From a virus, in IMG/VR virus record IMGVR_UViG_3300023284_002989: a stretch of DNA of 25,011 nt, one strand, 5' to 3'. The position numbers and the translations under genes were made by a program. Below are positions 3,382 to 22,931 of the stretch, piece after piece. How positions within the stretch are numbered: the first letter of the stretch is position 1; the number at the start of each line of letters is the position of its first letter. A model generated the notes under the pieces. The model searched no databases, was not told where the DNA came from, and was given only the letters and a program-made list of their open reading frames with translations.

Positions 3382-3566
3382 CGCGGGCACAGAAATGGCA
3401 GCAGTGGATCGAGCAGTGGACCGAGCTGCATGAGTACCTGGCCTGGGTGATGAAGAGGGCTGCGTACTCGATTGAGGACAAGGATCCCAAAGAGATACGA
3501 GATCAGTGGATGGAGGAAATGCATGAGGCAGCTGCAGACTGGGATGAATTTCTGTCCCACAGGTGA
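3378..3566 (+). CDS. hypothetical Trp-rich protein
   Basis: GTG at 3378 (GTGA overlap) is preferred over the internal ATG at 3336; this is the last gene before the terminator. Confidence 0.4.
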   Translation: MTRAQKWQQWIEQWTELHEYLAWVMKRAAYSIEDKDPKEIRDQWMEEMHEAAADWDEFLSHR

Positions 3567-3574
3567 GAAAGAAA

Positions 3575-3599
3575 TTCCCACGGATGGGAATGTTTTTCC
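3575..3599 (+). terminator. intrinsic terminator: TTCCCA-cgga-TGGGAA hairpin followed by TGTTTTTCC, nested in a longer imperfect stem (3553-3612) that is also followed by a U-run
   Basis: Inverted repeat and T-run read directly; sits between two gene chains. Confidence 0.5.
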
Positions 3600-3610
3600 T
3601 GTGGGTGGGA

Positions 3611-3651
3611 CAGTTTTTCTCTTTCGATCCCACCTGCGGGTGTGGTAAGTT
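3611..3651 (+). promoter_or_regulatory. promoter module copy a: GTTTTTCTCTT / -35 TTTCGA (3622-3627) / 18 nt / TGG-TAAGTT -10 (3646-3651); first ATG at 3660
   Basis: One of five homologous copies (3611, 5389, 10186, 19184, 22809). Confidence 0.45.
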
Positions 3652-3659
3652 CTCTCTTG

Positions 3660-3896
3660 ATGTCTGAGACTGGTAAATTGGATTCTAATGTGGTGCGTGA
3701 CTTTCCTGTGGGAGCACAACTGCGGTACAAGAAGTCACGTTTGCGAGGGAGTAACGTCCACTGTAACGTTATGCGGCATTTCCTCGATCCAAACAAAAAG
3801 CACTACGTCGAATTGCACTGGAGCACCGGGGAAAAGAATAATTGGTCGGCAGGAGGGGTTGTCAGCGATCTGCAGACAGAGACGATGGAGTTTTGA
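3660..3896 (+). CDS. family-1 small protein (paralog A): ...FPVGAQL...HCNVMRHF...WSTGEKNNWSA...ETMEF
   Basis: ATG TCT GAG ACT GG start at 3660; clear paralog of 6031, 10486, 15421 and 17669. Confidence 0.6.
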   Translation: MSETGKLDSNVVRDFPVGAQLRYKKSRLRGSNVHCNVMRHFLDPNKKHYVELHWSTGEKNNWSAGGVVSDLQTETMEF

Positions 3897-4213
3897 TGTC
3901 AGACGCAACTGTCACGAGGTTGTCCGTTACAAAGGACCGCGCCAAAGCCCTTGGGCAGTGGGTAGAGGAATTGTCACACGACCCGGTGCGGACAGAACTG
4001 TTCAAGCTGGGGTTCACCCCCTTCCAGTTCCACTACACGGCGTTCGACGGGAGCATGTTGTCTGTGTCGCCCGATTATGCCGAAGAGCCGGTCTGGCATG
4101 TGTGCTGGGACGAAAATGAGGGGGATGGGGGGATATTTGTCCGAGTACACACCGACGAGTTGGTGGATTTCCTTGCGGTGCGCATCAAGGAAATGGAGTC
4201 GTCGAGGAAGTGA
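3896..4213 (+). CDS. hypothetical protein
   Basis: ATG at 3896 (TGATG overlap); 105 aa. Confidence 0.5.
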   Translation: MSDATVTRLSVTKDRAKALGQWVEELSHDPVRTELFKLGFTPFQFHYTAFDGSMLSVSPDYAEEPVWHVCWDENEGDGGIFVRVHTDELVDFLAVRIKEMESSRK

Positions 4214-4392
4214 AATGGAAGGTCCGCGTATGGTGCAACGACTGTGGTTTCGGGCAGGACCCCATGGGCTGCTTCGAGGGGGGTAGTGAGGTGCTGGACG
4301 AGGTGTTCGAGACTGTGGAGGTGGCAGAGGACGCCGGGAGCGACTACTGCAAGTGTTCCACGTGGGATTTCGAGCTTTTGGAGGAACAGTGA
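4210..4392 (+). CDS. small zinc-ribbon protein (CNDCG...CKCS)
   Basis: GTG at 4210 (GTGA overlap). Confidence 0.45.
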   Translation: MKWKVRVWCNDCGFGQDPMGCFEGGSEVLDEVFETVEVAEDAGSDYCKCSTWDFELLEEQ

Positions 4393-4667
4393 AGCACCTG
4401 TCAGGTTGCAAATGGTACGCTGCGGCAGCATGCCCTGTAGCGGTGTCGTGTGATGCGCACGGGCACGATGTCTGCCCGGAGTGCGATCCCTGCATCTGCA
4501 GTGGGAAAGCATTCCTCGTGCGTGTCTGCAACACGTGCAGCAAGGAAGTCTTGCCCGTTGAAGAATGTGACGGTCGGGTGTTCTACGAACACATTTCGCC
4601 TTCACCAAAGTGTTGGATCGAATTGGTCAATGACGACACCACGTTTGTTGAGACGATGGACCTGTGA
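4389..4667 (+). CDS. Cys-rich protein (CPECDPCIC...CNTC), ends ...VETMDL
   Basis: GTG at 4389 (GTGA overlap); junction-motif end. Confidence 0.45.
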   Translation: MKHLSGCKWYAAAACPVAVSCDAHGHDVCPECDPCICSGKAFLVRVCNTCSKEVLPVEECDGRVFYEHISPSPKCWIELVNDDTTFVETMDL

Positions 4668-4951
4668 GGGTCAAACCCATACCGATGAGGACGCAGGAGC
4701 AAGCTCAACAGGGCTGCTATCGCAAGAGCGGGTACGCCTCTCTGGAATCGGCAAGGGTTGCTGCATCGCACAAGAGTGGAACCAGTTACGCCTACCGGTG
4801 TGGGCTGTGTGGGGACTGGCATCTGACTTCACAGCGTCCCAGCAAGGGCAAGATCGTCAGATCCAGGAGGCGCAGGAAAAGTAAGCAAGACCACAGTCTG
4901 CGGCAGTCGCTTGGTGACTCTTTGCGTAGTTTGACTAGTGACACCAAGTGA
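4664..4951 (+). CDS. zinc-ribbon protein with basic tail (YRCGLCGDWH...RSRRRRKSK), possibly nucleic-acid binding
   Basis: GTG at 4664 (GTGA overlap); 95 aa. Confidence 0.45.
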   Translation: MRVKPIPMRTQEQAQQGCYRKSGYASLESARVAASHKSGTSYAYRCGLCGDWHLTSQRPSKGKIVRSRRRRKSKQDHSLRQSLGDSLRSLTSDTK

Positions 4952-4970
4952 CTGGCAGTAGAGTCCCATA

Positions 4971-21644: not shown

Positions 21645-21946
21645 GCGGGGTTTGTGCAAAATGTGGGCAGACTCACGAGCGGACGCCATGCCCGAAATTT
21701 CCGCCAGGATTTGGTGATACAACGAGCCTGCGCAAGCGACTGGATGCTGCTGAGGAAGCCCTGGCCTTCTACGCAAACCCCGAGACGTACATTGCCATTG
21801 GCTTCTTCCCAGATCCGCCCTGTGGTGAATTCATGGACGACTTCAGTGACGCGCCGATGCCGGAATACGGACTGACTGGGCACCGACCTGGCAAGCTTGC
21901 GCGAGAGTATTTCGCTGAGCACTTTCCAACAAAAGAGACGGAATGA
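21641..21946 (+). CDS. zinc-ribbon protein (CAKCGQTHERTPCP)
   Basis: ATG at 21641 (ATGA overlap). Confidence 0.5.
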   Translation: MSGVCAKCGQTHERTPCPKFPPGFGDTTSLRKRLDAAEEALAFYANPETYIAIGFFPDPPCGEFMDDFSDAPMPEYGLTGHRPGKLAREYFAEHFPTKETE

Positions 21947-22194
21947 AAAGTCCATTCAGATGTGTGATCCGTGCTCTTCGAAAGAAGGATGAATCGAAAC
22001 AATTGTTGATGGAATCACGTATGGCATTGAAAGGATTGTGCGAGATACTGGTCGACATGGGGGAAGATGCAGAGGACCTGGACCCTGTTCCGGTGTTGAT
22101 CGAACGTATTGAGAAGTATCTGGGCATACCGAAGCGTCTGTCCGAAACAGGTGACATCCAGGAAGTCCACGACAAGTTGAAAAAAGAGGCTTGA
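21943..22194 (+). CDS. hypothetical protein
   Basis: ATG at 21943 (ATGA overlap); its stop lies inside a TTGACA hexamer. Confidence 0.5.
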   Translation: MKSPFRCVIRALRKKDESKQLLMESRMALKGLCEILVDMGEDAEDLDPVPVLIERIEKYLGIPKRLSETGDIQEVHDKLKKEA

Positions 22195-22218
22195 CACGTC
22201 CACAGGGGCGGTTACAGT
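22191..22218 (+). promoter_or_regulatory. sigma70-like promoter: TTGACA / 16 nt / TACAGT; ATG of mini-ORF MNSSH* at 22226
   Basis: Near-consensus -35 read directly; leaderless spacing to the ATG. Confidence 0.35.
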
Positions 22219-22229
22219 ACACAGCATGA

Positions 22230-22661
22230 ACTCTTCGCATTGACGTTCAGCTTGAGGCTGACCCGGTCACGCACTACATCATTGTTCGCAGTGACCTTCC
22301 TGTAGGAATCCTCGCCGCCCAGATCGTTCACGCAGCTGGCGAGTCGAGTCCCGGGAATCTCAAAGAGGGAACTTTCGCAGTCGTTCTGCAGGTTCCTGAC
22401 GAAGCAGCCCTGCAGAAGCAAGCTGTGCGCTTGCTGTCCAGAGGTGTCGACTTCAAGGCGATCACAGAGCCTGATCCGCCTTTCGATGGTCAGGTCATGG
22501 CCATCGGTGTGGTGCCAGGACGCAGGTCCGAACTGCGCCGTCACTTTTCGAATCTCCCACTTTACGCGGGTAGCTCAACAAGTAGAGCGCTGGCCGGGCT
22601 TTCGGGCTTCGTGTCAGAGGTAGGTGGTGCAGGTCCACCCCCGCGTGCTATGGAGGGGTAG
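22230..22661 (+). CDS. PTH2-family peptidyl-tRNA hydrolase-like reading frame with no canonical start codon; reads through tRNA-like element 1 to TAG 22659-22661
   Basis: The frame translates ...YIIVRSDLPVGILAAQIVHAAGE...FAVVLQVPDEAALQKQAVRLLSRGVDFKAITEPDPPFDGQVMAIGVVPGRRSELRRHFSNLPLY, matching the PTH2 motifs (AAQxxHAA, VVxxVPDE, AIGxxPG, HFxxLxLY). There is no in-frame ATG, GTG or TTG before 22425. Confidence 0.45.
   Translation, partial: TLRIDVQLEADPVTHYIIVRSDLPVGILAAQIVHAAGESSPGNLKEGTFAVVLQVPDEAALQKQAVRLLSRGVDFKAITEPDPPFDGQVMAIGVVPGRRSELRRHFSNLPLYAGSSTSRALAGLSGFVSEVGGAGPPPRAMEG
22564..22648 (+). other. tRNA-like element 1: acceptor ACGCGGG/CCCGCGT, D-arm GCTC-aacaagta-GAGC and T-arm GGTGG-tgcaggt-CCACC, but no foldable anticodon arm in the 34-nt central region (it contains the direct repeat CGGGCTT-TCGGGCTT)
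   Basis: Folded by hand from the sequence. Confidence 0.3.
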
Positions 22662-22713
22662 TGTAATTGATGCACACCTTCGGGTAGAGTTGGTTCGATA
22701 CCAGCCCCCTCCA
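22652..22713 (+). other. tRNA-like element 2 (62 nt): acceptor GGAGGGG/CCCCTCC, D-arm GTGT-aattgatgc-ACAC and canonical T-arm GTTGG-TTCGATA-CCAGC; the anticodon arm is replaced by an ACC-TTCG-GGT tetraloop mini-hairpin
   Basis: Folded by hand; it cannot decode. Confidence 0.35.
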
Positions 22714-22722
22714 CAAATTTTA

Positions 22723-22795
22723 GCTCCCATAGCTCAACGGTAGAGCACGCAGACCAATGACCTGCGGGTTTCGGGTTCAAATCCCGATGGGTGCG
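22723..22795 (+). tRNA. tRNA-like gene 3 (73 nt): acceptor GCTCCCA/TGGGTGC (one T-T mismatch), D-arm GCTC-AACGGTA-GAGC, anticodon stem CGCAG/CTGCG with an unusual 9-nt loop ACCAATGAC, T-arm TCGGG-TTCAAAT-CCCGA; anticodon undetermined
   Basis: Canonical U8, GG in the D-loop and a TTCAAAT T-loop; the 9-nt anticodon loop is aberrant. Confidence 0.5.
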
Positions 22796-22808
22796 CCCTG
22801 TTGACTAC

Positions 22809-22844
22809 TTTTCTCTTGGCGTGTACGTGCCGATCTGATAGGTT
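22809..22844 (+). promoter_or_regulatory. promoter module copy e: CTTTTCTCTTGGCG (-35 at 22816-22821) / 17 nt / TAGGTT (22839-22844); ATG at 22854
   Basis: Homologous to the modules at 3611, 5389, 10186 and 19184. Confidence 0.4.
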
Positions 22845-22853
22845 CGGCTTGAC

Positions 22854-22931
22854 ATGTCAACGCAGAATTTTGAGATAGGTGATGTCGTGCGTCTGAAGTC
22901 TGTGGTCTCGCAGGAATCACAGGATCTGTGA
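22854..22931 (+). CDS. 25-aa leader ORF (MSTQNFEIGDVVRLKSVVSQESQDL)
   Basis: ATG 10 nt after the -10 hexamer; its stop overlaps the next ATG (TGATG). Confidence 0.3.
   Translation: MSTQNFEIGDVVRLKSVVSQESQDL

Follow-up and report, generated by a model that had tools for sequence, protein, structure and literature searches.

The window analyzed here is a whole JGI metagenome contig of 25,011 nt (IMG/VR record IMGVR_UViG_3300023284_002989), and our subject is a family of five repeated intergenic modules within it, a through e, which are probably promoters. The contig has 55% G+C and a GC skew that is positive along its full length. Its ~78 open reading frames (ORFs) are mostly small and all lie on the + strand, and most neighboring ORFs are joined by stop-start overlaps (TGATG, ATGA, or GTGA). 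Twelve proteins have matches to PHROG families; there is one Lar-like protein and one PTH2-like protein (peptidyl-tRNA hydrolase 2), and a tRNA-Ile is present. The sole large gene (11240-13939) encodes an 899-aa homolog of the major vault protein (MVP; Pfam MVP_shoulder, 1.7e-27, and Vault_3). The region that holds the modules consists of small ORFs that are nearly without annotation. No hallmark genes were found on this 25-kb fragment, and neither megablast of the nucleotide sequence nor tblastn of 32 concatenated window proteins gave a match among 50,697 phage records. We take the contig to be part of a phage-like element that has not been cultivated.

The five modules and their hairpins

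All five copies lie on the + strand in the same orientation as the genes, and they follow the pattern (G)TTTTCTC-TTGNNN-17/18 nt-TG(G/A)TANNNT over a unit of about 45 bases. The copies are as follows.

3614-3651, + strand: module a, with the T-block TTTTTCTC (3614-3621), TTTCGA (3622-3627), an 18-nt spacer, and TGGTAAGTT (3643-3651)
5388-5425, + strand: module b, with the T-block GTTTTCTC (5388-5395), TTGCGG (5396-5401), an 18-nt spacer, and TGGTAGGTT (5417-5425)
10185-10223, + strand: module c, with the T-block GTTTTACTC (10185-10193), TTGCAG (10194-10199), an 18-nt spacer, and TGGTATAGT (10215-10223)
19183-19220, + strand: module d, with the T-block GTTTTCTC (19183-19190), TTGCAA (19191-19196), an 18-nt spacer, and TGGTAGGGT (19212-19220)
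22808-22844, + strand: module e, with the T-block CTTTTCTC (22808-22815), TTGGCG (22816-22821), a 17-nt spacer, and TGATAGGTT (22836-22844)

The extended -10-like element TG(G/A)TANNNT, with its TGn at -15/-14, is present in all five modules, and a -35-like TTGNNN stands at a spacing of 17-18 nt in modules b through e. Deviations are few: module a has TTTC instead of TTGC (and so TTTCGA as its hexamer), module c has an extra A in the T-block, and module e has TGA instead of TGG. The modules fill most of the few sizeable intergenic gaps in the window; elsewhere, neighboring genes mostly overlap or abut. Module c begins just 1 nt past the stop codon of the upstream gene, and module e begins 11 nt past the tRNA-Ile (22723-22797). 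In modules b through e the -10 includes an in-frame TAG, which rules out that the module is coding.

We scanned both strands of the window with a two-block position weight matrix (PWM), leaving out one copy at a time, and used 200 dinucleotide shuffles for comparison. The earlier note on this DNA, made from the sequence alone, had proposed five homologous copies, and the scan found all of them on the + strand, at 21-31 bits (25.5 for a, 30.4 for b, 21.5 for c, 31.3 for d, and 21.2 for e). The best non-site on either strand scored 13.3-16.2 bits, the maxima of the shuffles averaged 13.5 bits, and between 0 and 3 of the 200 shuffles reached the observed score of a module. A blind repeat finder placed a, b, and d in one family. 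Furthermore, the pattern TTGNNN-16..18-TGNTANNNT, which takes no account of the T-block, has four matches on the two strands (0.6 expected): modules b through e, all of them on the + strand. A candidate sixth copy at 7749-7786 (16 bits) was rejected: it is intragenic, and its -10 lacks the TA.

The similarity extends into the spacer. Over positions -27 to -16, pairwise identity among the modules is 53%, compared to 25.5% for random 12-mers (0 of 20,000 reached the observed value), and T-23, G-22, and G-19 are invariant in all five. The modules appear to have more in common than two hexamers, which would reflect either descent from one ancestral module or a factor that reads the spacer.

The earlier note had also described strong hairpins directly before modules a and b, with the U-run of each terminator doubling as the upstream element of the promoter. 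This is correct for both modules, where a hairpin runs into a U-rich block; the hairpin given at 3575-3599 is the inner part of a larger structure. The hairpins are as follows.

3552-3613, + strand: hairpin before module a, with nested stems (-30.3 kcal/mol, z -3.2), followed by UUUUUCUCUUU; also an inverted repeat
5354-5388, + strand: hairpin before module b, with a 13-bp stem (-24.9 kcal/mol, z -6.7; 0 of 200 shuffles as stable), followed by UUUUCUCUU
19151-19195, + strand: weak hairpin before module d (-14.1 kcal/mol, z -1.8), in which GAGAAAA pairs with the T-block

The T-block of module d is the 3' arm of its weak hairpin, and there is no hairpin at modules c and e. A stable G+C-rich hairpin followed by a U-run, which is the usual criterion for an intrinsic terminator, is found at a and b only. 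Within the modules we found no consensus RNA structure (-1.3 kcal/mol), and Rfam gave tRNAs only.

Start codons and further promoter-like sites

The first ATGs after the modules are at 3660, 5432, 10235, 19227, and 22854, as the earlier note had it, and the A of the ATG lies 9, 7, 12, 7, and 10 positions past the last T of the -10 in modules a through e, respectively. The canonical distance from the -10 to +1 is 7 positions. In leaderless genes, the -10 motif is found ~6-7 bp before the ORF (PMC12340547), and TANNNT is a general signal of such genes (PMC3160421). Leaderless initiation had been proposed for all five modules. It fits the geometry of b and d, whose transcripts are predicted to begin at the ATG. 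At the other three modules (a, c, and e), +1 probably lies ahead of the ATG; a CTTG that these three modules have in common places a G at 8, 9, and 7 positions past the -10, and because of this, leaders of 1-3 nt would fit better. Modules a, c, and e have no Shine-Dalgarno (SD) sequence at a functional distance: the anti-SD pairing energies are -2.9, -2.9, and -3.6 kcal/mol, compared to a median of -5.8 for the other genes and of -3.3 for the random background. In b and d, GGAGG- or GGGGG-like runs lie 15-16 nt before the ATG, which is upstream of the predicted transcription start. The ORFs that these ATGs open are listed here.

3660-3896, + strand: gene after module a, 78 aa, a member of paralog family F1
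5432-6013, + strand: gene after module b, 193 aa, with a twin-arginine (Tat) signal peptide (MGNEIGRRAVLKG...) and a match to Pfam TAT_signal
10235-10489, + strand: gene after module c, 84 aa
19227-19244, + strand: mini-ORF at module d, 5 codons (ATGGGACTACGACTGTGA), whose stop overlaps GTG 19241 (GTGA)
22854-22931, + strand: ORF after module e, 25 codons, whose stop overlaps ATG 22931 (TGATG), the start of a gene for a 72-aa membrane protein

That the first ATG is also the start of the gene is supported for a, b, and c. The N terminus from ATG 3660 aligns with those of the paralogs at 6031, 10486, and 15421; the automatic call for this gene in the protein collection (P0122) is 84 aa, which is consistent with GTG 3642 inside the -10. 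Within its ORF, ATG 10235 is the one possible start before the region in common with the paralog at 7561. For module b, GTG 5426 and ATG 5432 are the only starts that the in-frame TAG in the -10 allows, and the Tat signal peptide that follows ATG 5432 supports the latter. For d it does not hold in the contig as assembled, where the ATG opens 5 codons, and for e it would depend on whether the 25-codon ORF is real. At module d, GTG 19241 opens a 108-aa gene (19241-19567) in another frame than ATG 19227, and one added base after ATGGG(A) would yield an in-frame protein, MGTTTVKRED..., whose beginning would fit the recurrent MGT(E)T of genes 2270, 2535, 3175, 6031, and 7896. The coordinates of PHROG profiles could not settle the N termini of the module d gene or of the PTH2-like gene. 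A second site inside the gene after module a, GGTAAATT-N8-ATG 3688, is not kept in the paralog (6038-6089), and we treat it as chance.

The sequence ATGGGA follows b, c, and d, as had been noticed, because it is a recurrent gene-start motif (MGT/MGN) of this genome. It is not a promoter feature, since it is also found at the internal genes 2270, 2535, and 3175. We also observed that the 5' end ATGGGAACTGAGACTG (MGTET...) is common to otherwise unrelated small genes at 2270, 2535, 3175, 6031, and 7896, and also to those at 5432, 10235, and 16088.

The modules are not the only promoter-like sites in the window. The + strand has seven copies of GGTAGGNT, compared to 0.84 expected, and the - strand has one; five instances of GGTAGGNT-N6-7-RTG were observed, compared to 0.06 expected: modules b and d and three sites that have only the -10. 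More broadly, TAGGNT occurs nine times on the + strand, and seven of the nine are within 7-13 nt of a start. Two further sites have a perfect TTGACA. These five sites are as follows.

15406-15423, + strand: -10-only site GGTAGGGT (15406-15413), 7 nt, then ATG 15421 (F1 paralog, with a start supported by its paralogs)
18662-18679, + strand: -10-only site TGGTAGGCT (18662-18670), 6 nt, then GTG 18677
18896-18913, + strand: -10-only site GGTAGGTT (18896-18903), 7 nt, then ATG 18911
22191-22218, + strand: near-consensus promoter TTGACA-16-TACAGT, with ATG 22226 eight positions downstream
11169-11198, + strand: promoter-like TTGACA-18-(GG)TACGTT, upstream of the MVP-like gene, which would give a leader of ~35 nt with the SD GAGGG

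At 15421, 18677, 18911, and 22226, the distance from the -10 to the start is 7-8 positions. The five modules are one promoter subclass among at least 10 promoter-like sites, and with at least five sites besides the modules, the earlier proposal that the modules define the operon structure fails as it was put: they do not do so alone. An apparent remnant of a module upstream of the F1 gene at 6031 did not give a convincing alignment.

At the 22191 site (22191-22243), ATG 22226 opens the short ORF MNSSH*, which is 1 base out of register with the PTH2-like ORF (22230-22661). In the PTH2-like ORF, no ATG, GTG, or TTG precedes the domain, and the stop of MNSSH* overlaps an ATT codon of the PTH2 frame. 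An indel in the assembly or a frameshift could account for the mismatch in register, as could a mini-ORF coupled to the gene. A truncated tRNA-like element (22652-22713; Rfam tRNA, 35.3 bits), whose anticodon arm is cut to 4 nt, overlaps the PTH2-like ORF at its end. Just downstream of this element, the tRNA-Ile(AAU) has a C instead of a U at position 33.

Several features of the neighboring small genes also recur. Family F1 has four members (3660, 6031, 10486-10707, and 15421-15651) of ~75 aa, with the conserved pattern PVG...H...W.NG..N.W, and each of them is the first or second gene after a promoter-like site. A two-gene segment is duplicated (3660-4213 and 6031-6407), and over 98 nt at their 3' ends the two copies are 79% identical. 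At least 13 genes of different families end in (E)(T/V)ME(F/L)*, encoded by ...ACGATGGAGTTCTGATG (for instance, at 3876-3898, 6244-6266, 6387-6407, 9511-9533, 9900-9922, 10687-10707, 15631-15653, and 18007-18028). The DNA for this conserved C-terminal peptide also holds a GGAG ribosome-binding site and a TGATG overlap, and it could be a junction for translational coupling or for cassette exchange. Finally, Tat- or Sec-type signal peptides (MKRR(S/T)(V/I)LK...) start five small proteins (4971, 5432, 6410, 6761, and 10709); five predicted exported proteins is an unusual density for an accessory region of a phage.

Relatives, host, and comparable systems

A profile search with the F1 paralogs identified one close relative, a 793-nt ENA contig (L151). 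From the T-block to the ATG, L151 and module a are identical at 46 of 47 bases, while the flanking genes have diverged (76% amino acid identity for F1). L151 has an extra ~170 nt, which sits exactly between the GTTTTTCC of the hairpin and the T-block of the module. This insert is a 45-aa ORFan with its own upstream TGGTAGGAT-N6-ATG. The junctions, in this single comparison, do not show a clean crossover from repeat to repeat. The F1 protein of L151 (P0125, 99 aa) is the only relative of F1 in the database outside the window contig, and its call extends into the module.

Other searches for the module gave chance matches or none. The strict module pattern had 0 matches in IMG/VR, and a looser pattern gave more than 120 singletons there, which we rejected as chance. 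In metagenome contigs, the strict pattern gave 27 singletons of unrelated GC content, none with a homolog of a window protein, and these were rejected as well; one of them is a bacterial Crp-like gene that has the same geometry by chance. Neither the MVP-like protein, nor the F1 profile, nor the module b protein led to related loci in IMG/VR, and exact look-ups of three window proteins also found nothing.

We also examined two distant relatives, L121 (a 74.6-kb Logan contig from SRR12550822), whose MVP is 47% identical to that of the window, and L122. The window PWM had no match on either, and L122 has no repeated cassette. L121 has 13 GGTATAAG boxes (for instance, at 2718, 4418, 6652, 8066, 8349, 13970, and 18524), all of them on the coding strand and intergenic, with none on the other strand, and they lie 18-121 nt before starts. 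Many follow hairpins of the form AGAAAG...CTTTCT(T)TTGCC, and all are followed by a leader with GGAGG. The GGTATAAG box, which is without the canonical -7 T, may be a lineage-specific promoter. From these comparisons, terminator-promoter cassettes seem to be general in the group, and the leaderless layout seems to be particular to the lineage of the window.

The earlier note had likened the leaderless starts to those common in Actinobacteria; our searches do not support an actinobacterial host. The contig has no similarity to the 50,697 phage records, and leaderless genes led by TANNNT are also frequent in other phyla: Deinococcus-Thermus (39%), delta-proteobacteria (16%), and Acidobacteria (13%) (PMC3160421). 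Among 185,579 species genomes, the cellular relatives of the MVP homolog are almost all from metagenome-assembled genomes of Myxococcota, at 44% identity or less, and these relatives point weakly to Myxococcota. The identity of the homolog to proteins of three huge uncultured phages is 34-36%, and no entry in the protein collection exceeds 47%. MVPs of phages are the subject of one report, a preprint (bioRxiv 10.1101/2023.11.10.566534).

The closest counterparts of the modules are the PeSL cassettes of T4-type phages (PMC2839356, PMC4122927), which likewise combine a repeated sigma-70-like promoter, an A/T-rich upstream tract, and a stem-loop terminator. PeSLs and modules alike have the orientation of the genes around them; PeSLs are found among small ORFans where genomes are plastic, and the modules, which stand among small, hardly annotated ORFs, may occupy such a region too. 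PeSL promoter/stem-loop units flank ORFans that differ between close relatives (PMC2839356, PMC4122927), and L151 and the window also differ by an ORFan cassette right at module a, although this is a single case. However, a PeSL ends in an SD before the ATG, whereas the modules have no SD, only 6-11 nt separate the -10 from the ATG, and the ATG lies at or within 3 nt of the predicted transcription start. PeSL hexamers are close to the consensus (TTGACA/TATAAT), while those of the modules are TTGCRR/TAGGNT with a TGn. The composite of promoter, tract, and stem-loop is found in a and b, weakly in d, and not in c or e. Moreover, the window element, which is known here from its sequence alone, has no T4-like signs, and the L151 junction has no clean crossover. 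We class the modules as a variant of the PeSL family and not as members of it, since they lack the SD that defines a PeSL and nothing here marks the phage as T4-like.

The starts themselves resemble the TANNNT-led leaderless genes of Deinococcus-Thermus, Actinobacteria, and other phyla (PMC12340547, PMC3160421, PMC4633059), in which an SD is absent and TANNNT ends 6-7 nt ahead of the start codon, ATG or GTG. There, too, gene callers extend ORFs too far upstream, and leaderless small ORFs can be coupled to the next gene. However, those genes are on host chromosomes and usually have little -35 information, whereas the window is from a phage-like element, where the signal is embedded in a longer, repeated unit that includes a -35-like box, a conserved spacer, and a terminator. 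In addition, three of the five modules have the ATG at 9-12 positions.

Among phages, the large Thermus phage phiYS40 and its relatives, as described in 2007 by Sevostyanova and colleagues, reportedly make many leaderless middle and late transcripts that start at the A of the ATG. Their promoters are said to rely on a -10 or extended -10 element, as the modules would, with a motif that differs from that of the window. We know of no terminator-fused repeated module described for phiYS40. The start-associated sequences of Cluster K mycobacteriophages and the stoperators of Cluster A are, like the modules, short asymmetric repeats that lie in one orientation in small intergenic gaps before starts. 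However, start-associated sequences contain an SD, stoperators are 13-bp repressor sites, and neither has the -35/-10 geometry or a leaderless start. We found no similarity of the window to these mycobacteriophage motifs, or of the contig to any actinobacteriophage among the 50,697 phage records.

Interpretation and alternatives

We favor, with moderate confidence, the view that the modules are sigma-70-family extended -10 promoters with leaderless or near-leaderless starts. In this uncultivated phage or phage-like element, the five modules would be regulatory cassettes that are paralogs of one another, and each would be an extended -10 promoter with a T-rich tract, a weak -35 (TTGNNN), a 17-18 nt spacer, and TGnTANNNT. 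At a and b, and vestigially at d, the T-rich tract would at the same time be the U-tract of an intrinsic terminator to which the promoter is fused, so that transcription from upstream would stop and then restart within ~90 bases. The start codon would be placed where RNA polymerase starts, giving truly leaderless transcripts at b and d and leaders of 1-3 nt without an SD at a, c, and e. Genes further downstream would be translated by stop-start coupling (TGATG, ATGA, or GTGA) and from internal GGAG sites. We infer the promoter activity, the polymerase and sigma factor used, the exact 5' ends, and the leaderless translation from the motif and its position. In any case, the modules are repeated terminator-promoter cassettes of a known general kind and involve no new mechanism.

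Several observations weigh against this view. First, outside L151, we did not find the module in public contigs beyond the chance singletons. Second, the conservation of the spacer exceeds what a plain promoter needs. Third, the hexamers match the E. coli consensus at only ~6 of 12 positions and are not flagged by a simple consensus scan. Fourth, the ATG of module c, 12 positions past the -10, is too distant to be +1. Fifth, the GGAGG run of module b is 10 nt before the in-frame GTG 5426, so that an SD-led start on read-through RNA is possible. Sixth, the ATGs of d and e open ORFs of only 5 and 25 codons.

The short ORFs may have a role of their own. We consider it possible, if somewhat doubtful, that d, e, and the 22191 promoter drive leaderless mini-ORFs of 5 to 25 codons, and that termination (at GTGA, TGATG, and ATTGA) feeds ribosomes onward, as a layer of control by coupling. 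The stop at d overlaps GTG 19241, the stop at e overlaps ATG 22931, and the mini-ORF at 22226 ends on the ATT of a PTH2-like ORF that lacks a canonical start. Mycobacteria couple leaderless small ORFs to downstream genes, and ATT can initiate leadered translation there (PMC4633059). However, in both of the 5-codon cases, a single-base change restores a full-length leaderless gene, and the product at d then begins with MGT. These two cases could therefore be explained just as well by frameshift mutations or by errors in the assembly, and the PHROG profile coordinates do not separate the readings.

The strong conservation of the spacer raises another alternative, which we consider unlikely: that the modules are promoters that need a factor specified by the phage (an activator, an appropriated sigma factor, or a phage sigma factor) and are not plain host housekeeping promoters. 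Such a factor would read the T-block/TTGCRG and a second yTGCGG 12 nt downstream, and the modules would make up a temporal class to which the TTGACA promoters at 11169 and 22191 do not belong. The spacer is conserved far above chance, with T-23, G-22, and G-19 invariant, and all five modules have a non-consensus -35, as against the perfect TTGACA of the two other promoters. The uniform GGTATAAG box of L121, with its missing -7 T, also hints at lineage-specific recognition. An analogy is offered by the middle promoters of T4, which have a MotA box at -30 plus an extended -10. On the other hand, shared descent of the five copies would also explain the identity of the spacers. Within the 25 kb, no candidate for the factor was identified, as there were only weak helix-turn-helix matches. 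In addition, the -10-only sites use the same -10 without the upstream block, and TANNNT with G-14 suffices in several phyla.

We hold a broader proposal to be about as improbable: the modules would be a leaderless counterpart of PeSL in a non-T4 lineage, that is, mobile terminator-promoter cassettes that move ORFans, carry signals free of ribosome-binding sites, are possibly read by a factor, and in some cases drive coupled mini-ORFs. The movement of ORFans is suggested by the indel between the window and L151.

The same indel bears on a still less probable alternative, in which the repeats are mainly recombination linkers, boundaries, or operators at cassette junctions and their likeness to promoters is secondary. 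Genes would then be expressed from long read-through RNA, either SD-led or coupled (for instance, from GTG 5426, GTG 3642, or GTG 19241). The gene-sized indel lies exactly between the hairpin and module a, the F1 paralogs always come first or second after a promoter-like site, gene callers extended ORFs into the module (P0122, 84 aa, and P0125, 99 aa), and GGAGG precedes GTG 5426 in b. However, the strong terminators at a and b make expression by read-through unlikely, and the in-frame TAG in b through e excludes starts further upstream. The strict -35/-10 spacing, the strand bias, and the fixed distance from the -10 to the start are traits of a promoter that a recombination site does not need. 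Modules a, c, and e have no SD, and the L151 junctions show no clean crossover between repeats.

Among the rejected ALTERNATIVES was the module as a coding N-terminal extension (b through e have an in-frame stop in the -10). We also rejected TAGGTT or AGGT as an SD, since AGG is missing from a and c and the distance of the box is fixed, as in a promoter; boxes of the sigma-54 (TGGCAC-N5-TTGC) and ECF types, which by inspection do not fit in order and spacing; and the module as an RNA element, as there is no conserved structure.

If our preferred reading, of extended -10 promoters with leaderless or near-leaderless starts, is correct, it provides a working transcription map for a contig with almost no known gene functions: two terminator-promoter boundaries, three further module promoters, and no fewer than five promoter-like sites besides these. 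It would also correct several automatic gene calls whose starts reach into promoters. The GGTAGGNT-N6-7-RTG rule could aid in calling starts, and in guessing the translation style of the host, in related metagenomic phages. More broadly, two known themes, the repeated promoter-terminator cassettes at the junctions of exchangeable ORFans and the leaderless mode with a -10 box directly before the ORF, would be extended to an uncultivated lineage without cultured relatives.

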